A stretch of 64,000 nt of DNA, from NCBI GenBank assembly GCA_965248925.1, contig CBDFLE010000005.1, forward strand, positions 2,112,001 through 2,176,000, written 5' to 3'. The stretch is from Candidatus Multivoradales bacterium. Its GTDB lineage: Bacteria; Acidobacteriota; Thermoanaerobaculia; Multivoradales; J023. The notes beneath the pieces are model-generated. The model was not told the DNA's origin. It ran no database searches and saw only the letters and a list, made by a program, of their open reading frames with translations. Made by a program: the position numbers and the translations under genes. This document shows, in pieces, positions 18,855-32,380 of the stretch (position 1 is the stretch's first letter; every line of letters starts with the position of its first letter).

Positions 18855-18996
18855 TTATTCGGCACGGTGCCCCCTGAACAATCCCAAGGGCCAGACGACT
18901 ACCTATGAGTCCAGGTGAAGGGGCGCAAGGCTTGCGCCCGTCCTTGGACCCGAAGTGTGTGGTATTCCTAGCTAACTACGCTACTTTTGGATGCCT

Positions 18997-19217
18997 CTGC
19001 GGAACGCATCCAGCGCGAGTCTCGCCAGCGAACTCCTGTGGTGCCAAGAAAGCGAGTGAACGCGGGCTTCCAGGCGATCAAGCACAGCCGCCCAGCGACC
19101 GCCGAGAGATCGTACCTGGCCGCCTCTCTCACCTCGCGCGACGACGCCGAGCAGACTTTCCGGGAAGTGTTCCTCGACCGCCGACGAGCGGTCCCCAGCC
19201 AGCCAGAAACGGCCGCC
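18997..19217 (-). pseudogene. Remnant copy of the S24/S26 peptidase 3' part (25617..25837)
   Basis: About 90% identical by eye; encodes WLAGDRSSAVEEHFPESLLGVVAR. Confidence 0.9.
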
Positions 19218-19343
19218 TGGCCAAAGCTCGGAGCTTCCTCGAGAAAGCCTCAAGTGGCTCAGGTCCGCCCGCAATCTAGTCGTGTTCGGCGGCGCTGGCC
19301 GCGCCTACCGCGGCGTCGAGAAGTACTTGCGCGCGGCCAAGCT

Positions 19344-22805: not shown

Positions 22806-25511
22806 ATGCGGCACCTTTGTGTAATCACAGCCTCGATCTTGGTATTTTTCCTCGGCCCTGGCGCCCGCGCTCAGGATTGGCAAGAACTAGGCCCTGCACC
22901 GGCCACCAACACTACCGACAATGGCGGAGAAACCAGCAAGGTCTCGGCCCTGGTGGTCAGCCCCAGCGATTCTGATCGCTACTTCGTCGGCGGCGCCGCC
23001 GGGGGGGTTTGGCGAACCACCGATGGTGGCCAGTCCTGGAGTCCGCTGACCGACCGCTTGCCGAGTTCGGCGATTGGCGCCTTGGCCCTCGATCCTAGCA
23101 ACGAGAACATCATCTACGCTGGCTCGGGAGAGTCCAACAACCGACCCAACAGCCTCTACGGCTTAGGACTCTACAAGAGCGTCAACGGCGGCAACAGCTG
23201 GGAGGTGTTGGCGACGCAGACCTTCGCTGGCCGCACTTTCTCTCGCTTGGCGGTGTCGTCCCAGAACGGCAATCTGGTGTGGGCCGCGGTGGCACCGGCT
23301 GGCATCGACCTGCAGAGAACTGGCAGGGAGGCCATGGAGGGGGCGCGGCAGCACCCGCGACGCAACGGCAGGGTGGGTATCTTCCGTTCACGGGACGCTG
23401 GCCAGACCTGGACCGCGGTGGCTAGCGGCCTGCCACCGATCGCGGCCAGTGACGTGGTCTTGGATCCGCAGCGGAGCTCGCGCGTCTACGTTGCCTTCGG
23501 CGATGCTTATGGCGACTCGAGAAACGGCGTCTACCGTAGCACCGACGGGGGCTCGAGCTTTACTCGCGTACTGGCCCCGGAACCGGACGCCGACGGCCGT
23601 ATCTTCCTCGCCATGGCGCCATCAGACCATAACCGCCTCTACGCACTCATCGCGAGATTCGGCCAGCCCGTGCCGGGCTCTGCCAGCACCCGCGGCTTCT
23701 ACCGCTCGGACGATGGTGGCGATTCCTGGACCCAGCTCAGTCCCACTGTTGAAATACATGAAGGGCTGGGGGCCAACGTTGGTGCCATCATCGTCCATCC
23801 CACCGACCCGGACCTGCTGTTCGTGGCCGGCAATTCTCTCTTTCGGTCGCGGAATGGTGGACTTGATTTGACTAAGCTCCTGTTACCCATAGCCAACGTG
23901 CGTCGAGGCGTACACGCCCTCGCCATCGATCCGGCCGGCAATGTGTTGGTGGCCACCAACGGTGGTGTTTTTCGCTCCTCGGACCAGGGAGATAGCTGGC
24001 AGGCACGTAACAACCGGCTCGGCCTAACCCGCTTCAATGCCGGTCTTTCTGTGCATGCTTCGGATCCCAACTTGATTGTTGGTGGAACCGGGGCGGGCTC
24101 GGTGGTCTACACCGGCAATGGCCTTGAATGGCGCCGTATTATTCGCAACATCGGCGGCTATACAACTATCCATCCGAACGACCCAGGAACCATCCTGGCG
24201 CAAACTCCGGTCACCGGCAGCATCTTTCGCTTTTTCAACGGCAGGAGCCCGAGGTTTTCCGGTGAAGGCATCACAATCGCTGAGCACGCCTCCTTTCTAA
24301 GTCCCATGCTCTTGGACCCGCAAGATCCGAATCGGATTCTCTACGCCAGCCATCTGATCTACGAAACTAACGACCACGGCAATACCTGGCAGGCGATCAG
24401 TGAAGATCTCACCGGCGGCTCTCCGGCTGGTATCAGGGCCTTGGCGATAGCCCCTTCGAACTCCAACACGGTATACGCCACCACCACCGATGGCCGCCTC
24501 TTGACCAGCACCGATGGCGGTCACACCTTTCCGCCGCGCTTGGACGCGGAAGTCGGCTGGGCACTGGCGACGCGCCAGATTGCGGTAGATCCCTTGAACG
24601 ACAGGCGCGCCTACGTGGCCATTGGCCGCTTCGGTGGCGCCAGCATCCTGGCCACCACCGACCGCGGCCTGACTTGGGGAGACATCGGTCAGGGCCTGCC
24701 CAACCGACCGGTCAATGCCCTGGCGGTCCACCGTCGTGGCAGCGCGCGCTTCATCTTCGCCGGCACCGACAGCGGCGTTTGGTTGAGTTCGGACAATGGC
24801 GCCAGCTGGAGCGAATACGGCCAGCTTCCTAGATCCCCGGTGCAGGATTTGGTGGTCGATACCTTCCATGACCGCCTGCTCGCCACCACCCTTGGCCGAG
24901 GTGCCTGGAGCACCAGTCTGCCAACCGGCTCGGGAGGCGGACCCGGCCCCGGCGGTTGTCAGGAACCCTTGGGCTCGGGACGTTTTTGCTCCGCCTGTGG
25001 GCCCTGCAGCCAAGGCGAAGGCGATTGCGACAACGACGCCGAGTGTCAAACTGGTCTCAGCTGCGCCCAGAATGTCGGCGCCGACTTCGGCTTCCCACCG
25101 GCGGTAGACGTCTGTGTCGATGGCGGTGGCGGTGGCGGTGGACCCTCGACCTGCCCAGTCCCCCAGGGCAACGGTCGCTTCTGCACCGTGTGCGGGCCTT
25201 GTGGCCCGGGCGAGGGCGACTGCGACAACAACGCCGAGTGCCAGAGCGGCTTAACCTGCGCTCAGAATGTCGGCGCCGACTTCGGCTTCCCACCGGCGGT
25301 AGACGTCTGCATCGGCGACGGCGGACCCGCGGTCTGCCCGCTGCCGGCTGGCAATGGCCGCTTCTGCACCGAGTGCGGCCCTTGCGGCCAGGGTCAAGGG
25401 GATTGCGACAACGACGCCGAGTGCCAGAGCGGTCTGATCTGCGCCCAGAACGTGGGGGCTGACTTTGGCTTCCCGCCCGCGGTCGACGTCTGCGTCGCTA
25501 GCCAACCTTAG
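22806..25511 (+). CDS. Secreted BNR/Asp-box (VPS10-like) beta-propeller protein with three C-terminal Cys-rich repeats
   Basis: AAGGAG RBS, signal peptide, repeated SxDxGxTW Asp-boxes, and 3 copies of C..GRFC..CGPC..G.GDCDN.AECQ.GL.CAQNVGADFGFPPAVDVC. Confidence 0.9.
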   Translation: MRHLCVITASILVFFLGPGARAQDWQELGPAPATNTTDNGGETSKVSALVVSPSDSDRYFVGGAAGGVWRTTDGGQSWSPLTDRLPSSAIGALALDPSNENIIYAGSGESNNRPNSLYGLGLYKSVNGGNSWEVLATQTFAGRTFSRLAVSSQNGNLVWAAVAPAGIDLQRTGREAMEGARQHPRRNGRVGIFRSRDAGQTWTAVASGLPPIAASDVVLDPQRSSRVYVAFGDAYGDSRNGVYRSTDGGSSFTRVLAPEPDADGRIFLAMAPSDHNRLYALIARFGQPVPGSASTRGFYRSDDGGDSWTQLSPTVEIHEGLGANVGAIIVHPTDPDLLFVAGNSLFRSRNGGLDLTKLLLPIANVRRGVHALAIDPAGNVLVATNGGVFRSSDQGDSWQARNNRLGLTRFNAGLSVHASDPNLIVGGTGAGSVVYTGNGLEWRRIIRNIGGYTTIHPNDPGTILAQTPVTGSIFRFFNGRSPRFSGEGITIAEHASFLSPMLLDPQDPNRILYASHLIYETNDHGNTWQAISEDLTGGSPAGIRALAIAPSNSNTVYATTTDGRLLTSTDGGHTFPPRLDAEVGWALATRQIAVDPLNDRRAYVAIGRFGGASILATTDRGLTWGDIGQGLPNRPVNALAVHRRGSARFIFAGTDSGVWLSSDNGASWSEYGQLPRSPVQDLVVDTFHDRLLATTLGRGAWSTSLPTGSGGGPGPGGCQEPLGSGRFCSACGPCSQGEGDCDNDAECQTGLSCAQNVGADFGFPPAVDVCVDGGGGGGGPSTCPVPQGNGRFCTVCGPCGPGEGDCDNNAECQSGLTCAQNVGADFGFPPAVDVCIGDGGPAVCPLPAGNGRFCTECGPCGQGQGDCDNDAECQSGLICAQNVGADFGFPPAVDVCVASQP
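24957..25493 (+). repeat. Three intragenic Cys-rich repeats of about 53 aa
   Basis: Near-identical DNA units separated by Gly-Pro linkers. Confidence 0.9.
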
Positions 25512-25570: not shown

Positions 25571-26077
25571 TCAGGAAGGGGCGACCCAGGCGAGACTGCG
25601 CAACTCAAGAATTGTTCTGCGGAACGCATCCAGCACAAGTCTCGCCAGCGATCTCCCGTGGCGCCAAGTAAGCAAGTGAAGGCGGGCTTCCAGGTGATCG
25701 AGCACAGCCGCCCAGCAACCGCCGAGAGATCGTACTTGGCCGCCTCTCTCAACCCGCGCGACGACGCCGAGCAGGCTTTCCGGGAAGTGTTCCTCGACCG
25801 TCGACGAGCGGTCTCCAGCCAGCCAGACACGGCCGCCAGCTTGCCTCAAGATCCGGTGACATACCAGATCGCCAGTAGCGGTTCTAGCCAGCACGATGCT
25901 GCCGCGCCGAGCCGCGGCGGGCGGCAAGATCTCGACCCAATCGCCACCTCGAATCAGCGGTTCCATCGAACGACCGCGAACTCGCAGTCGGCCCGGCTGG
26001 TTGGCCCTGAGGGCGCGGGCCAAGAGCCGCTGGGCAAGCGCTGCCATGCTCGGGTCGGTCACGGTCAGGTCGATCAC
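25571..26077 (-). CDS. S24/S26-family peptidase
   Basis: RVRGRSMEPLIRGGD (catalytic Ser), LVCHRI and LAGD motifs. Start uncertain (GTG near 26077 or ATG near 26047). Confidence 0.8.
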   Translation of the reverse strand: MIDLTVTDPSMAALAQRLLARALRANQPGRLRVRGRSMEPLIRGGDWVEILPPAAARRGSIVLARTATGDLVCHRILRQAGGRVWLAGDRSSTVEEHFPESLLGVVARVERGGQVRSLGGCWAAVLDHLEARLHLLTWRHGRSLARLVLDAFRRTILELRSLAWVAPS

Positions 26078-26091
26078 GGTCAGGCTTGGTC

Positions 26092-29000
26092 CTACCACCG
26101 GCTGGTATCGCCCGATTCGAAACCATCGGCGAAAATCAGCTGCCTTGCTGCCCGCACCACCCACCCGAACCGCCGCACGGAGCCGTTCATCGCAAAGGTG
26201 TAGCTTCCTTCCCCTGCCACCGCGATCCGCTCACCGGTCCGCAAGTCGGTCAGCACCGAGCCGAGGAGGCGCGAGCTTGGCCCCTGCCAACCCAGCGTCA
26301 CTTGTGCCTCAGGATCTGAAGAGCGGACTTCGAAGCTCCAGGCGTCCGCCGCGGATTCGTCCTGCAGAGGATGGTAGTCGGACCCATAGTCGCCAGCATG
26401 ATTACCCCAGTTAGCATGCGGGAACACCACCGTTAGATAAGCATCTCCAAACGGAACCAGCTCTTCGAGATCGTGAGAATCGAAGCCTTGGGCACTGTCG
26501 GCCAGCTGCCCGAAAACGTTGCTGACATCCCGCAACGCTCCGGATTCGGCGGTTAGGCGGATGTACCAACCATTCGCCAAAGCCGACTTTGGGTTACCGC
26601 AAGGCAGCCCCGGCCCGCCGGCAAAAGCGGGGATGCGCAAGCTGATGCCACTCTTCACCGCCGACACCCAGAAACCGTCCCAAGGCACTGTCGTGCCTTC
26701 CATCCCCAGGGTGGTGCCGTCGAAGGTCGCATAAGAAGCGCCGGTCCATTTGTGAGCGATCCGCGACATGACGCAGCCATTGGCGGCGGCGCTCGCTGCT
26801 TGGCAAGCTCCACCCAGGTCCGCCTCGGCCAGGCTCAGCGTGTTGGCGCCATCGACCACCTGCACATCCGCCCAGCAGACGTCGTAGGGATGCGGATGGC
26901 CCACCATGTTGCAGCGACCGGCGGAGTTGCCACAGCCGGCCGGCGAATCGGCGGTGCTGGTCACCAGCGCAATGTCCGAAACCGGGCTGAAGGTCGAACC
27001 CGTGTCGACGGTCGGTGCCACCAAGTTGGTGATGATCCAATAGGCCTCGCCCACATTCAAAATATCGGTGGTGGCCATTTGAACGTAGTTCTGTGCCACC
27101 GCGTCGCGGCGGAAGACCACCCAGTTCGTGCCATAGATACCGGATAGATCGTCGCCGAAAACCTGGGCAACAGTATTCAGCCCACCTGGATTACAGGCCA
27201 GCGAGATCTGCTTCCACTGATTGGGGACTAGGTCGACGGTCTGGTTGCACTGATTGTGGATTTGGAAGCTGGCGGAATCAAGCTTCCAAGCACCACGGCC
27301 CAAGGTGCCCGCCGCAAGAACGTCGTCAGCAGAGTCGTAATCGAGATTGAAGACCGCTGCGTTGGGCAGGGCTGCCAGCCGATCCCAGAGGGTGAAGCCA
27401 CTGCCTGCCAGAGCGACAAAAACACCGGCCGTGCCGCCCACCACCAGGCCATCGCCCGCAGCGCTGGGCAGGTACTCGATCGAGCGCAAGATGCCGGGGT
27501 TGAAGGTCTGCAAATTACCCGTGATGTCGGTCCAGCTGATGTTGCCGTTGGTAGTGCGAAACACTTGGTTGGCGTCGATGACAAAAGCAGCGGCCGAACT
27601 GGCCGGATCCATCACCACCCCAGCAATATTGTCGGTGCTAGCGCCATCGGGGTCGGTGGCGCGAAACCCGGCGCCGGCGGTAGTGGAGATGACAAACTGG
27701 CCACCGACAAAGTAAAAGGCACTGGCATCGCCGATAGCACCGTAGTCCATCGGTCCACCACCATCGAGGAAGTTGATCCCGCCGCCGCTAACCAGCTGAG
27801 TTACCGTGTTGAGCCGGTCGAGGCTCTCGTAGAGGCCGTTGCCGGCGCCGAGGATAACTCGCGACGGAGTGATGGCGTTGACCTTGAGCGGGGTGATGAA
27901 CTGGGGCGCCACCGCCGGCGACCCGCCCAGCGGGGTCAAGGTTGGGAAGACGAAGCTCTGCAAGACGTTGCTGGAGTCGTAGACCACCCGCACCAGGTTG
28001 CCTAGATTCTGCGCGCTCACGTAGCGGGTCGACTGACCGACGACCGGATCGTTGGCCGCCACCGCTACATCGCCGCCGTCACCGCCGAGCAATGCCTCCC
28101 AAAGCACATTGCCGGGAGTGGTCTGAATCGTTGTCCCGTTGTCCTGATTGCCCGAGACGAGAACATTGGAGACCGTGTCGTAGGCGCTGTCGTGCTGCTC
28201 ATTGACCGGCAAGTTACCGATCACCGAAAGCCAGTCGCCGGTCGAACCATTGGGATCGCTATGCCGGTAGATCCCACCGTCGTCGGTTTGGATGAGGTCG
28301 CCGTTGGCGTCAAAGACCAGCTCTCGCGAGTCGGCGTGGGGGGCCGGATCGCTGACCGTGCGAATGGCACCGCCACAGGCCGCGCTGGCCGTGGAGCAGT
28401 TGGTGATCGGCGTCGCCTGGCTGCCCAGCGGTTGGCCGGCGTCGACCCGGAACAGGCGGCCACCAAAATTACTGGCGCCGATCGAGTTGGGGAACTGCAC
28501 TCCCGGCATGCCGTTCTCGTTGTTGGCGGGTTGTCGGTCGCCGCCGAGGAAGACCACATTGTGGTTGCTGGGATCGGCGGCGATCGACATGTGGATACCG
28601 CATTGACCGCCGGGGTGAATGCCGAAAGAAGTGCCCATCTCGGTGGTCGAAGGCAGATCGAGAGTCGTCCAGGTTGCCCCGGCGTTGCCTGAACGAAAAA
28701 GCCCGGCCAGACGACCAGCGCTGCAGATGGCGGCGAAAACGTTGGCGCCGGCACCGCCCGCCGTACCAACACTGATCTCGACCCGGCTGGGACAGGTCGG
28801 AAACAGCAGAGCGTCCATCGCCGCGTTGCTCACCTTGGTCCAAGTTGCACCGGTGTCGGTGCTGCGGTAAACAGCACCGCTGCCGCCTTGAGTGCCGGAA
28901 GTGAATAGCCGGGTGTTGTCGGTAGGGTCGCTGGCCAGATCGAAAGACAGTCCGCAGGGCAATCCGGTCACGCCCACGTTGTTCGAAATCTGGGTGAAGC

Positions 29001-29649
29001 TGGCACCGCTATCGACACTGCGCCAGATGCCCACCTCGCCGCAAGTGAAGGCGTCAGCGTTTGCCACCGCAACGACGATGACGTTGCCGCGGGCGGCGAC
29101 GCCGGTGTTGTTGCGGCCGGCAATAGCGCTCAGTTCCGTCCAGGTTGTACCATCATCGGTGCTGCGCAGCAGACCGCTGCGGGGCCCGCCGAGGCTGGCC
29201 AAAGAGCTGGTACGCCCAATACCCGCCACCAAAGTATTGAAGCTCGGGTCGGTGGGGTCGAGCGCCAACGCGGCGATCGACAGCGAAGTCTGAGCATCGG
29301 TCAGCCGAATCCAACTCGGATTGGCGGCGCTGGCGTCGTCGCTGCGGAAGACCCCACCATTGACCGCGCCGATCCAAACCACATCCGCGTTGGTCGGGTG
29401 AGCCACCACCGCTTCAATAGCACCGCTAATCGGTTGGTTGGGGATGTTCTCCGGCTGCCCGAAGTGAGCCGGACCCGGACCCTGGGGGATCCAAGCGCCA
29501 CCCACCACTTTTGCAACTGGAGGCCGAGCCGGCGCCAACTCCCCCTACTGGGCCGACACCGGAGTGCCCGCTCCGACAACCAGCAGCAGGACCAGCGCGG
29601 CAGACCCAAGCAGTCGCAAGCCTGACAATCTTCGAATCTTCGGCTTCAT
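26092..29649 (-). CDS. Large secreted BNR-propeller protein with C-terminal IFADGFESGD motif; in-frame TAG at 29545-29547
   Basis: ATG 29649 gives signal peptide MKPKIRRLSGLRLLGSAALVLLLVVGAGTPVSAQ, then TAG, then the 1148-aa ORF in the same frame. Asp-boxes; ends LIFADGFESGDTSRW. Confidence 0.85.
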
Positions 29650-29659
29650 TTTGCCGCCT

Positions 29660-30766
29660 TCATGGAGGGAACGCTCCTCTGAAGGAAGGGTCGCGCAGCG
29701 GCCGCCTCCAGATCATCAGGCCACTGTCGAGACGGACCGCGCGTACTTGGCGCGGTTCTTCGATCAAGCCATCGCCAACCCGGCGGCCATAGGTGGGCTG
29801 GAGGTGGATCAGCCGCGCGCCATCGACCCGGAACCAGGCCTGTGAGCGATGGCTGCGGACCTGCCCCAGGCGCTCGCCGGTGTCGAGGGAGAACACTGAC
29901 CAGCCGTACTCCCGCCATTCGCCGGGCGCGTCCCTTTCGCTGACGATCAAGTGGCGACCATCGGCCGAGCGTTGTTCCAGGAGATAAGGGCCGGCGAAAA
30001 GTTCGACATCGACCAGGCTCTGGCCACTGAGATCCCAGCGCTTGAGCACCAACCGCCCATCAACCACCCGGGTCGCGGCATAGACTTCGCCGGTCATCGC
30101 GGGCGCTGTGGACACTTCCCCCCGTCCAACCCACTGCTGAATTGCTGGCGGCAACGTTGCCGCCAACTGCAAAGTCGTGGGATCCACGGCAACGGCGCGG
30201 CCGGCGAGCAGGTCCAGACGAAAGGCGCCCACTTGCAGCTGTCCGAGTTCCTCACCAGGTTGCGGTGCGATGCCCTTGGCATAACGCCGGAGATGGTCCC
30301 ACAGCAAGTAAGGCACGTCTCGCGATACTTCCACCCGCGCAGTGAAAACCGTACTCATACCTTCGTCGACGGCCACCACGACCCCCGCCGGGAGTTGCAG
30401 TGAAAGCGACTGCCGCCACTCTCCGTCGCCAGCATCGAAGAGCACTACCTCGAGAACGCCGTCAGCCCCGGTCGGCAGCCCCTGAGCGAACAGCAGATCT
30501 TGATGCAGCGCCAGCGGTTTGGCGGCTAGGCGAGTGGTCCACAGAGTTTCGCCGGATGACGCCAGCAACGCGTCGATGCCGCCTTCCGGGTTCATTATGT
30601 AAGCCGAGTGCCCCTCGGAATCAACAACCACGCCTGGGCGTAGACTGGCTGCGTCGACACTTCTAAGCGGCGTTTCGGCCGTCTGGGTGTAGGGCAACGC
30701 GGCGGCCAAGAGCGGCAGAAAAAAGCCACCAAGCAGCCAAAAAGAACGAACTCTAGTCATGTTCAA
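29660..30766 (-). CDS. Hypothetical secreted protein (PQQ-like beta-propeller)
   Basis: Signal peptide; DAL..SGETLW-type repeats; first gene of the leftward operon. Confidence 0.75.
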   Translation of the reverse strand: MNMTRVRSFWLLGGFFLPLLAAALPYTQTAETPLRSVDAASLRPGVVVDSEGHSAYIMNPEGGIDALLASSGETLWTTRLAAKPLALHQDLLFAQGLPTGADGVLEVVLFDAGDGEWRQSLSLQLPAGVVVAVDEGMSTVFTARVEVSRDVPYLLWDHLRRYAKGIAPQPGEELGQLQVGAFRLDLLAGRAVAVDPTTLQLAATLPPAIQQWVGRGEVSTAPAMTGEVYAATRVVDGRLVLKRWDLSGQSLVDVELFAGPYLLEQRSADGRHLIVSERDAPGEWREYGWSVFSLDTGERLGQVRSHRSQAWFRVDGARLIHLQPTYGRRVGDGLIEEPRQVRAVRLDSGLMIWRRPLRDPSFRGAFPP

Positions 30767-30943: not shown

Positions 30944-31156
30944 ATGTCGAGAAGGGAAACAGATAGGCAGCTGGGATCGCCGGAGGTCTCGGGCGAAGCC
31001 GCTGCTGCCGCATCAGAGAGCGAAACAGCGCGCAGAGCCTATTCGAAGCCGGTGCTCGCCCGCCGAGGCCAAATCCAGCCATCGTTACAGTTCGGCAGTC
31101 CACCGCCGCCGCCATCCCCCAGAGATCGCCCGCGCCTATTGGGCCGCTGGGAGTGA
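30944..31156 (+). CDS. Putative RiPP precursor peptide (YxxPxL leader, poly-Pro core)
   Basis: GAGGAG RBS; RRAYSKPVLARRG leader motif; C-terminus GSPPPPPSPRDRPRLLGRWE; lies directly upstream of a PqqD gene. Confidence 0.75.
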   Translation: MSRRETDRQLGSPEVSGEAAAAASESETARRAYSKPVLARRGQIQPSLQFGSPPPPPSPRDRPRLLGRWE

Positions 31157-31203
31157 CCGGCCAGCATCCTGGCTGTGCCGCCCAGGAGCGGCCGCGGTTG
31201 AGC

Positions 31204-31470
31204 ATGACTCAACGGATCCGCCGGTCGCCCGCGACCGTGGCGCAGAGTCTGCGCGGAGAGTGCTTGGTGCTCGATCTCGGCACCGGCTTCTACTTCACTC
31301 TCGGCGAGATAGGCGGCTTCATCTGGGAACAGCTCGGAGACCAACCGGATCTCGCGGCCATCGTCCAGCAAATCACCAGCCGCTTCGCCATCGATGCCGC
31401 CACGGCGGAGACTGATCTGCTGGAGTTTGTCGAGCAGCTGCTCGACCAGCAGCTGCTGGAGTTGGAGTGA
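31204..31470 (+). CDS. PqqD-family protein (RiPP recognition element)
   Basis: 88 aa; ECLVLDLGTGFYFTLGEIGGFIWEQL..IVQQI..F.ID..TAETDLLEFVEQL. Confidence 0.92.
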   Translation: MTQRIRRSPATVAQSLRGECLVLDLGTGFYFTLGEIGGFIWEQLGDQPDLAAIVQQITSRFAIDAATAETDLLEFVEQLLDQQLLELE

Positions 31471-31516
31471 CTTCCCTTTCTCAGTCGAGCAAACCCTGGC
31501 TCGGCTGAGCTGAGGA

Positions 31517-32380
31517 GTGGCGTTGCGACTAACCATTGGCGAGGATCTGGTCTTTCAGTTCGCAGAACTGCCGAGTGGCTTGCAAGATCGAATCGCCGAG
31601 CGATTCCGCCACTACCTACAGCGACCGGCAGTGTCCTCGCCATCTCCGCTACTCATTTCCACCGCCTTGCCCCCCGCAAACCCATCGGCACCCGAGTCGC
31701 TAGTTGCTTTGCGGCCACCCCTGAGGGTGCAGCGCCAGGGGCGAATCTTGCTCTACCAAGTGCGGGGGGTGACGGGTTGGTGTGATCCGCAAACTGGCCG
31801 CGGCGGCATCCACGTTGGCGCGGCGGAACCCTCGGCCCTCGACAGTTTTGCCGCCATGGCGATCCCTTCGATGCTCTTCGAGCTGGCCGCGAATCGGGGA
31901 TGGTTGGGCGTCCACGCGGCAGCGATAGTGATGAATGGCCGCGGTATTCTCTTGCCCGGCCCCAGTGGAGCTGGTAAATCCACTTTGTTCGAACTCGCCC
32001 GTACGAACGGGTTAGGGGTCCTGTCCGATGACTTGACTTGGCTCCAAGATCAACCAGACGGCCCTTTCCGTCTGTGGGCCGGACCGGCCGCCGGTTCGCC
32101 GACGCAAGTTCTGCCGACTGCGGATGGAGTGCCCCTGGCGGCGATCGTATGCCCGACGATCACCGGCCGCCAAGCAAGCCGACTCGTCGCTCTATCCCTG
32201 CCCCAGCTGTTGGAGGTTCTGCTGCCGCAGTGCAGCTTTCTCGCCCTTGGTTCCGAGGCCGGCGACCGCTTCGGACGACTGATTCGGGCAGCGGATTCAG
32301 CGACGGCCTACCGCCTCGAAGCCGGCGGCGACCGCAGCGAGACAATAAGGATCTTGGGTCGGCTTTTCTCCCCTTGCTGA
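31517..32380 (+). CDS. HPr kinase-related P-loop protein
   Basis: VHAAAIV..GRGILLPGPSGAGKSTL..VLSDD signature; GAGGAG upstream. Confidence 0.85.
   Translation: MALRLTIGEDLVFQFAELPSGLQDRIAERFRHYLQRPAVSSPSPLLISTALPPANPSAPESLVALRPPLRVQRQGRILLYQVRGVTGWCDPQTGRGGIHVGAAEPSALDSFAAMAIPSMLFELAANRGWLGVHAAAIVMNGRGILLPGPSGAGKSTLFELARTNGLGVLSDDLTWLQDQPDGPFRLWAGPAAGSPTQVLPTADGVPLAAIVCPTITGRQASRLVALSLPQLLEVLLPQCSFLALGSEAGDRFGRLIRAADSATAYRLEAGGDRSETIRILGRLFSPC

Follow-up and report, generated by a model that had tools for sequence, protein, structure and literature searches.

A probable acidobacterial relative of linear polyphosphorylated peptide systems: a cyclase-free RiPP cassette with a GSPPPPP precursor

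Linear polyphosphorylated peptides (LPPs) were defined by Popov et al. (Nat Commun 2026, published May 2026; PMC13381572), whose account describes the LPP genes lppA-K-B-S-D-N of Paenibacillus alginolyticus DSM5050. According to this account, the LPP set comprises a precursor, the HprK kinase LppK, the RRE LppB (RRE, RiPP recognition element; RiPP, a peptide made by the ribosome and modified after translation), the archaeal-type signal-peptidase-like LppS, an MsbA-like exporter and a nucleoside triphosphate (NTP) transferase, and a cyclase is not part of it (PMC13381572). The precursor motif is given as YxxPxVLxHQxIxFETxxS, in which the phosphorylated Ser is residue 19 counted from the Tyr. 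Core Ser3 receives as many as four phosphates from LppK; LppS, with the catalytic residues S29, H68 and D93, cuts after Thr(-1), requires LppB, and accepts the unphosphorylated LppA precursor only as a poor substrate (PMC13381572). The authors term LPPs, together with paeninodins, restricted to Bacillota. Their supplementary table holds 199 SpI homologs, 10 of which come from Acidobacteriota and belong to minor network clusters; these ten rows all have a Ser nucleophile, for five of them the RRE is assigned to the class 'other', and for none has the precursor been determined (PMC13381572). Here we describe a locus of Candidatus Multivoradales bacterium (Acidobacteriota) within a stretch of 64,000 nucleotides (contig CBDFLE010000005.1 of assembly GCA_965248925.1, positions 2,112,001 to 2,176,000), hereafter called the window, to whose first letter coordinates refer unless another locus is named. 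The locus holds a cassette of four genes for a precursor, an RRE, a kinase and a peptidase, and all four are present in the window. Judged by comparison of sequences and gene neighbourhoods, this is probably an acidobacterial LPP-like RiPP cassette that makes a linear (poly)phosphorylated peptide, the most likely product being a linear, Ser-phosphorylated, Pro-rich peptide. An earlier reading made from the letters of this DNA alone (the sequence-only reading) had proposed such a product from a lasso-type leader precursor served by an RRE and an HprK-type kinase, and the comparisons presented here argue in its favour. A second, distant lineage with LPP logic, which as of the published 2026 definition was known from Bacillota only (PMC13381572), would extend the range of cyclase-free relatives of phosphorylated lasso peptides beyond what has been reported.

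The LppA-like precursor gene (30944..31156, plus strand; 70 amino acids) was assigned from its open reading frame (ORF), its ribosome-binding site, a family alignment and matches to a hidden Markov model (HMM). The ORF starts with ATG, and GAGGAG lies 7 nt 5' of it, so that the strong ribosome-binding site and the YSKPVL motif of the sequence-only reading were both found as described; the product ends in GSPPPPPSPRDRPRLLGRWE. Four further genomic copies were found via relatives of the kinase, each with an ATG and a purine-rich stretch upstream. Three of them belong to the family of the window's genome (24 genomes, with the window's own as G000 and its contig as C5), namely to G017 (locus L025, 3923..4090), G021 (contig C26, L058 1450..1623) and G010 (contig C460, L057 8420..8608), and one to a metagenome-assembled genome of Acanthopleuribacteraceae (L062, 6014..6175); these five genomes are referred to below as the cassette genomes. 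A profile of the five copies matched 18 proteins among 5.8 billion, two of which are the L062 and G017 copies themselves, and the resulting alignment of genomic copies and database proteins has 21 members, so that the family comprises at least this number. Because four further genomic copies and these database proteins carry the same motif, the sequence evidence marks the ORF as a real gene, far beyond chance. The Pro run is spelled with differing synonymous codons in the five DNA copies; thus, selection appears to act on the peptide. When JGI metagenome contigs were scanned with the precursor alignment, two loci were returned; inspection revealed neither an ORF resembling the precursor nor genes of the cassette in them, and both were treated as false. 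Rfam gave no match between 30500 and 32500, and a scan for promoters and terminators yielded no promoter-like sites, while terminator-like sites were as frequent as expected by chance.

The family consensus is RRPYxKPxxxxxGxIxPSLLGSPPPPP, preceded by a free N-terminus and followed by a part that is variable or absent. Counted from the Tyr as residue 1, Pro is found at position 4, a hydrophobic residue at 6 and Gly at 10. The Tyr, the Pro(+3), the Gly(+9) and three Pro are invariant among the 21 members, and the columns P46, L48, G51, S52, P55 and P56 are conserved to at least 90%. The window precursor follows this layout with a variable N-terminus, the stretch Y33-S-K-P36-V-L, then G42-Q-I44-Q-P-S-L, and the conserved core G51-S52-P5. 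Its tail 3' of the core, SPRDRPRLLGRWE, is not conserved in the family, and seven of the 21 precursors end at GSPPPPP, GSPPPPPP or GSPPPVP. Since the tail is variable or absent in the relatives, its Arg-rich, antimicrobial-peptide-like end is not a family feature, and the Pro/Arg-rich bioactive peptide of the sequence-only reading, akin to proline-rich antimicrobial peptides (PrAMPs), was not borne out. The nearly invariant minimal core GSPPPPP offers a simpler substrate for the study of the kinase and the peptidase.

Compared with the published LPP motif, the family agrees in Y1, P4, the hydrophobic residue 6, I12 and S19 in 15 of 21 members (the window Ser is at 20), and the parts VLxHQ and FET are replaced by xxxG and PSL. 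The position of the Ser follows from that of the Gly of the GS pair, which is residue 18 in 15 of the 21 precursors and residue 19 in five, including that of the window; one precursor lacks the pair. As far as the LPP systems are described, both systems have an N-terminal YxxP RRE-binding motif, with the Ser 18 residues past the Tyr in most members here, a discrete PqqD-type RRE, an HprK-type kinase and a soluble signal-peptidase-like peptidase with His for Lys. Neither has a macrolactam cyclase, and both genomes also hold a canonical lasso cluster. Because the position of the Ser (15/21) and Ile12 are common to the LPP motif and the family, the window cassette in all likelihood works like an LPP system. 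The sequence-only reading had spoken of an undescribed system; the same enzyme logic has meanwhile been published as LPP (PMC13381572), and on this analogy the system would not count as undescribed.

The cassette is classed here as an LPP-like variant rather than as a member of the Bacillota LPP family. Measured against the published description of the latter, the phylum is Acidobacteriota and not Bacillota, the conserved core has 7-8 residues (GSPPPPP) whereas that of LppA has 45, and the leader ends in PSLL instead of FET. Furthermore, most relatives of the peptidase have Cys as the nucleophile, whereas the window's own and LppS have Ser, the window contains neither the MsbA-like exporter nor the NTP transferase of the conserved LPP set, and the cassette is linked to a secreted-protein module whereas LPPs are linked to capsule loci. 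The window RRE is also nearer by sequence to lasso B1 proteins than to LppB. Neither the Cys-type peptidase subfamily nor GSPPPPP precursors are found among the ten acidobacterial SpI rows of the published table (PMC13381572), and in the literature on RRE, HPr-kinase, S24 and lasso-related RiPPs no account of this cyclase-free GSPPPPP variant was found.

The discrete PqqD-type RRE (LppB/B1-like) is encoded at 31153..31470 on the plus strand, with GTG at 31153 or ATG at 31204 as the start, in an ORF that overlaps or abuts the precursor gene. Pfam PqqD scored 64.8 bits against it (cut-off 23.4; E 9.3e-18), in agreement with the stand-alone PqqD that had been noted directly after the precursor ORF. 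The best NCBIfam model was lasso_PqqD_Bac with 58.4 bits, below its cut-off of 80; the canonical lasso B1 of the same genome scores 54 bits with the lasso PqqD model, about equal to the window RRE. In a search of the PDB the window RRE alone matched PbaB1 (9x90, 1.4e-9), TbiB1 (2.7e-9) and TfuB1 (2.7e-3), and a profile of 46 PqqD proteins matched TbiB1, PbaB1, TfuB1 and, in fourth place, LppB (7.7e-13). The RRE-leader complex was modelled, a check suggested by the sequence-only reading. The PqqD alignment combined with precursor residues 21-62 reached a score of 0.52 against 0.02 for the best control, with runs that agree in at least 96% of contacts and a partner pLDDT (predicted local distance difference test) of at least 59, and was graded as "weak support". 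The mark is reached by 116 of 157 solved complexes and by 2 of 215 mismatches, and a score of 0.60 or less was obtained for only 18 of the 157 solved complexes plus both mismatches. As lasso and LPP RRE-leader complexes have already been solved, the pass may reflect likeness to these.

The HprK-type precursor kinase (LppK-like) was assigned from its catalytic motif, profile and predicted fold. Its ORF of 287 amino acids lies at 31517..32380 (plus strand); the database gene call of 285 amino acids implies a TTG start at 31523. Against Pfam and NCBIfam only sub-threshold P-loop matches were obtained (HprK_rel_A with 4.6e-7, HprK_rel_B, ScmC and Hpr_kinase_C). Besides the window's own protein 46 relatives were found, the closest of which are 57-62% identical over the full length. 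The motif H133-G148-G151-G153-K154-S155-D171-D172 is conserved in an alignment of 36 sequences, with four invariant residues (H133, K154, D171, D172) and two nearly invariant ones (G148, G151). Its spacing, H-15-G-3-G-2-G-K-S-16-D-D, is that of the motif published for the lasso-precursor kinase BsfK, H148-G163-G166-G168-K169-S170-D186-D187 (PMC10368454). A profile of the 36 relatives retrieved HprK/P structures first from the PDB (1jb1, E 1.4e-5). Together, the H..G..G.GKS..DD motif and these best matches confirm the earlier designation as an HPr-kinase-like P-loop protein. The AlphaFold model (pLDDT 93.5) matches phosphoenolpyruvate (PEP) carboxykinases, i.e. a PEPCK-like fold; PEP carboxykinases and HprK/P form one fold class. 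Most of the kinase relatives (P0019-P0065) carry the precomputed Pfam accession PF27840, and a newer Pfam release may already define the kinase family under this number.

The candidate for the leader peptidase, an LppS-like protein of the S24/S26 signal peptidase fold, is encoded at 25571..26077 on the minus strand, 5 kb upstream of the precursor and directly after the gene of a secreted 1148-aa protein discussed below. It was located by tblastn of orthologs from other loci against the window's genome; the ATG is at 26047, and the open frame extends to 26164. Pfam Peptidase_S24 scored 36.4 bits (cut-off 23.3), and the peptidases of L062, G017, G021 and G010 are likewise all above the threshold (4/4). 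The predicted catalytic residues Ser27/His64/Asp79, counted from the ATG at 26047, are in invariant columns; invariant are C63-H64-R65 and D79, the Asp being part of LAGD. The Cys-His-Arg occupies the position of the general-base Lys, and when the peptidase profile is aligned with the catalytic domain of LexA, the nucleophile falls in register. Fold and motif order are shared with signal peptidase I (SipW/Sec11, clan SF, S26B) and LexA-type S24 enzymes, with a G-x-S-M-x-P nucleophile motif, the base about 37 residues later and a GD box. SipW/Sec11-type signal peptidases have His in place of Lys, and LppS, as described, shares this replacement with the window-type peptidase. Unlike signal peptidases I, the window-type peptidase has no membrane anchor, and neither a signal peptide nor a membrane segment was evident by inspection of its sequence; it also scores below every NCBIfam signal-peptidase cut-off. 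The nucleophile motif G-x-[C/S]-M-x-P could be scored in 49 of 63 relatives, the remaining 14 being gene calls that start after it. Cys was found in 39 of them, Ser in nine and Asn in one, a further difference from signal peptidases I, as is the invariant C-H-R, which is present in 54 of the 63. The window peptidase is of the Ser form. If true, a switch of the nucleophile from Ser to Cys in an enzyme of the signal peptidase fold would be of interest to protease enzymologists. As a separate observation, a pseudogene fragment at 18972..19220 (minus strand), 78% identical to peptidase residues 70-152 and with two internal TAG, is found at a distance of 6.5 kb from the intact peptidase gene; it lies downstream of a gene for a YfhO-like membrane protein with a fused methyltransferase.

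The gene order of the cassette was compared between the five genomes. In L062 the precursor, S24-like peptidase, PqqD and kinase form one operon in one direction; in G017 a precursor-peptidase pair faces a convergent kinase-PqqD pair; and in G021 the peptidase is next to the precursor on its downstream side, so that it comes directly after the precursor in three other genomes. On contig C14 of G010 PqqD-kinase faces the peptidase, and the precursor is on the separate contig C460. In L062, G017 and G010 the SpI-like peptidase, which we liken to LppS by description, is thus syntenic with the PqqD gene, and the window peptidase is best regarded as belonging to the same system as the precursor, RRE and kinase. 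The sequence-only reading had taken the locus to be devoid of a protease, which no longer holds with this candidate 5 kb away. In the window, the cassette consists of two divergent units split by an inversion, one with precursor, RRE and kinase (plus strand) and one with secreted protein and peptidase (minus strand); since the peptidase ortholog was found at 25571..26077, the locus as originally noted is one arm of a divergent pair.

Precursor HMM matches are present in exactly four of the 24 family genomes (G000, G010, G017 and G021), and kinase matches of E 1.5e-47 or better in the same four, all other kinase-like matches being at 6e-12 or worse. The question raised by the sequence-only reading, whether a YxxPxL..GS-Pro ORF is conserved near homologs of PqqD and the kinase, is answered in the affirmative by this co-occurrence and the 21-member family. 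Peptidase orthologs were found in all five cassette genomes and PqqD orthologs in four of them. The distribution of the precursor is patchy: among 401 sampled Acidobacteriota genomes a strong match was obtained in G000 only, with three weak extras (E 3e-4 to 5e-4), and in the order of the L062 genome one of 11 genomes has the precursor. Database matches of kinase and peptidase come from contigs of equal size (12234, 48463, 7806, 14025, 5596, 19411, 8171, 9214 and 6604), as do those of precursor and peptidase (2253, 1091, 6604 and 4406165), which suggests shared contigs.

This co-occurrence also bears on the question whether the small ORF is a RiPP precursor at all. Five or more Pro near a stop codon are a known ribosome-stalling sequence (EF-P-dependent translation), the ORF ends right after the Pro run in seven of the 21 members, and it lies directly upstream of an enzyme gene in four of the five genomes, as would be expected of a cis-acting polyproline stalling leader that controls downstream genes. 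However, the G010 ORF is on another contig than the enzymes, none of which is 3' of it, the lasso/LPP-type RRE-binding motif at fixed spacing is the most conserved part besides the Pro run, and the ORF co-occurs with RRE and kinase across genomes. We therefore consider a stalling leader very improbable.

For a functioning LPP-like cassette, the following course of events is proposed. The PqqD RRE would bind the 70-aa precursor at the YxKPx(L) motif of its leader, as suggested by homology and, weakly, by the in silico complex. The HprK-type kinase would then phosphorylate the RRE-bound precursor, possibly several times, on the invariant Ser of the G-S-P5 core, which in most members, 18 residues past the Tyr, would correspond in position to the phosphorylated Ser3 of LppA. 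The soluble S24/S26-fold peptidase would cut off the leader one to three residues before the core Ser. The product would be a short linear x-G-pSer-Pro5, carrying the non-conserved tail in the window genome.

Phosphorylated lasso clusters (Bsf and paeninodin-type) are the other close comparison. Published lasso leaders have the spacing Tyr(-17)/Pro(-14)/Leu(-12), and BsfK of Bradymonas sediminis phosphorylates Ser3 aided by B1 (PMC10368454). The cassette resembles these clusters in its leader spacing Tyr(-17)/Pro(-14)/hydrophobic(-12) (PMC10368454, PMC13381572), in a hydrophobic residue instead of Thr near the cleavage site, Ile(-2) being known in Bsf-type lasso precursors, and in the kinase motif H..G..G.GKS..DD with identical spacing (PMC10368454). 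YxxPx-hydrophobic with the 17-residue lasso spacing is found in 15 of the 21 precursors here, with Leu or Met and not Thr at position -2. As far as the lasso clusters are described, the cassette differs in having neither lasso cyclase nor B2 cysteine protease, in a core without the ring-forming Asp/Glu, and in a leader peptidase of another fold. The statements of the sequence-only reading that the core has no Thr at -2 and no Asp/Glu at 7-9 were correct: counted from the Gly of GS, the window core has an Asp at position 11, and an acidic residue (Asp/Glu) is found at positions 7-9 in one of 20 cores, that of L062.

As likewise stated before, no lasso cyclase, B2, radical S-adenosylmethionine (SAM) enzyme or nucleotidyltransferase (PF14907) was found among the window ORFs of at least 200 amino acids between 8 and 48 kb; the Radical_SAM model gave no match in this set. 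The PF00733 and PF13471 matches of the genome are all on contig C6 and none is on the window's contig C5; the single PF14907 gene of the genome is on C6 as well, and PF14907 is also present in the G017 locus. The proposed search of the genome for lasso partners thus had a positive outcome for C6, where cyclase and B2 exist, and a negative one for C5. In five related loci scanned, neither PF00733/PF13471 (cyclase, B2) nor an ABC exporter was seen. Had homologous loci always carried a cyclase or radical SAM enzyme, the window copy could be taken for a decayed known cluster; however, a lasso cyclase is present in none of the six loci with the precursor or its close enzymes, and one of them (L062) has an unrelated-looking radical SAM gene 4 kb from the cassette. 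The canonical lasso cluster of the window genome (L074, contig C6, 782000-794000) consists of B1, B2, cyclase and a 60-aa precursor, ...YRAPELVEWGAITEITQ|GPMGGIED..., with a YRAPEL leader, Thr(-2) and Glu7/Asp8 (TQ|G...). Since this cluster is complete and its precursor leader resembles that of the window, its canonical B2 and C enzymes might act in trans on the window peptide as a lasso precursor. Against this, the family has Leu or Met at -2, acidic residues at 7-9 in just the L062 core and none in the window, and a peptidase of its own in the cassette. Because the acidic ring residue is missing, maturation in trans is excluded for most family members, and for the window peptide we give it hardly any credence.

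Several points weigh against an LPP-like cassette as the explanation of the window locus. Both the phosphorylation and the cleavage site are inferred. The Ser of the window precursor is at position 20 from the Tyr, not at 19. In the PDB search at E <= 0.01 the window RRE alone did not match LppB (9x8z). Because it reaches lasso B1 proteins but not LppB, a parallel origin from lasso machinery appears as open as common descent with the Bacillota LPPs. A PqqD ortholog was not found in G021 (90% complete), and neither an LppD-type exporter nor an LppN-type nucleotidyltransferase was found among the window ORFs scanned. Finally, the gene of the large secreted protein contains an in-frame TAG (29545..29547, minus strand) between an ORF encoding a typical signal peptide (ATG at 29649, 34 codons) and the 1148-aa body, whose ORF starts with TTG at 29538. 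This could mean partial decay of the island. The gene may be a recent pseudogene, it may be re-initiated without the signal peptide, or there may be a sequencing error. Reassignment of TAG was considered and rejected, as TAG ends 501 of 1672 long open frames genome-wide and is an ordinary stop in this genome.

The whole island could then be a decaying remnant of a functional LPP-like or lasso-like cluster that gives no product now, to which the in-frame TAG, the peptidase-like pseudogene fragment, the splitting of the cassette by inversion relative to L062 and G017, and the lack of an exporter or nucleotidyltransferase among the ORFs scanned would all fit. However, the four core ORFs are intact and retain every family-invariant residue, the precursor has a good ribosome-binding site, and the closest kinase relatives are 57-62% identical over the full length. 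With four core genes intact in their invariant residues, a decayed remnant is unlikely.

The large protein itself (26092..29538, minus strand; 1148 amino acids) is of the BNR/Sortilin type (Pfam Sortilin-Vps10). Its last ~390 amino acids (26095..27294) form a conserved module; seven aligned copies share 51% mean identity and four invariant Cys. The N-terminal parts of the module proteins differ and are BNR/Sortilin, TIG plus GEVED, or none recognised. ESM Atlas scores for the module are below 0.9, its AlphaFold model is poor (pLDDT 53.7), and VIA-align of the model returned generic beta-sandwich matches only (Z <= 5.8). The module is single-copy in the window genome and is present in six of the 24 family genomes, i.e. 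in the four cassette genomes of the family as well as in G004 and G014. In each of the six loci examined it adjoins the precursor or the enzymes, which suggests a cell-surface or extracellular context; because the module is strictly linked to the cassette, a role at the cell surface is kept open. This strict linkage opens a way to test function that is missing in the Bacillota systems.

The adjacency in 6/6 loci of a module that is single-copy would also be compatible with the enzymes acting on or with the large secreted protein or another one, the Pro-rich peptide being a regulator, decoy or cofactor, and a trio of related accessory proteins beside a giant secreted C25 protein at another locus (L107, see below) points in the same direction. 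On the other hand, the large protein is secreted, whereas inspection revealed neither a signal peptide nor a membrane segment in the peptidase. The module is also present in G004 and G014, in neither of which a precursor or close kinase was found, and the precursor carries the RRE-binding motif. A secreted protein as the actual target is therefore improbable.

For the LPP-like cassette, a more far-reaching scenario can be drawn, which we regard as doubtful but worth stating: it may have arisen from lasso machinery independently of the Bacillota LPPs, having recruited a signal-peptidase-fold enzyme that switched to Cys/His/Asp, and its product, an eight-residue (poly)phospho-Ser-pentaproline and thus among the smallest RiPPs, may act with the secreted module as a ligand or polyproline-II handle.

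A related arrangement is found in G017 (L107, contig C131, 3000-14000), where a radical SAM cluster includes PqqD, an HprK-like protein and an S24-like peptidase, together with a 1222-aa C25 protein and a small ORF whose leader reads AYEKPQL and whose end is rich in Cys. This cluster resembles the window cassette in the same three accessory proteins, in the YxxP-type leader and in the neighbouring giant secreted protein with FADGFESGD. It differs by the radical SAM/SPASM enzyme, which is absent from the window cassette, by its Cys-rich core, against a Pro-only one in the window, and by the Ser-type peptidase. The L107 peptidase is of the Ser/His type, with archaeal signal peptidase I as its best NCBIfam match. 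Compared with the SynChlorMet-type NCBIfam models ScmC and ScmD, the window proteins score far below the cut-offs (25 vs 125 bits and 26 vs 100 bits).

Among the other flanking genes, a BamB/PQQ-like beta-propeller protein (29660..30766, minus strand; weak Pfam PQQ_2, E 0.0067) is encoded between the large-protein gene and the precursor. A stronger PQQ_2 protein is found near the G010 precursor (L057, 9278-10816; 1.3e-36), and from this association the BamB-like protein is a possible accessory. The G010 precursor copy has a divergent sulfotransferase gene (L057, 7290..8213; Sulfotransfer_3, 6.4e-32) directly upstream of it, whose product may be an additional tailoring enzyme. In the window, the genes of a two-component pair lie downstream of the kinase gene and converge on it.

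The lasso cluster at L074 additionally encodes a protein of 442 amino acids that ends in a PqqD domain, as well as an HprK-like protein with the P-loop GNAGGKT. The same contig has another unusual neighbourhood with a kinase (L073, G000 contig C6, 700000-716000), in which an Asn-synthase-like gene, an ORF of 116 amino acids that belongs to no family, a C25 peptidase of 1392 amino acids that includes GEVED and a P-domain, and an HprK-like P-loop protein follow each other in a row. In the window, a second Sortilin/BNR protein of 901 amino acids (22806..25511, plus strand) converges on the peptidase gene and ends in three near-identical Cys-rich repeats (...GNGRFC..CGPC..GEGDCDNDAECQ.GL.CAQNVGADFGFPPAVDVC...). 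The motif F-A-D-[GS]-F-E-S-G-[DN]-x-x-x-W recurs in the window (26095..26140), in L025 (3810..3859) and in L107 (14..3682); FAD[GS]FESG forms the extreme C-terminus of two large secreted proteins and is internal in two others, before the C25 domain or the tail.

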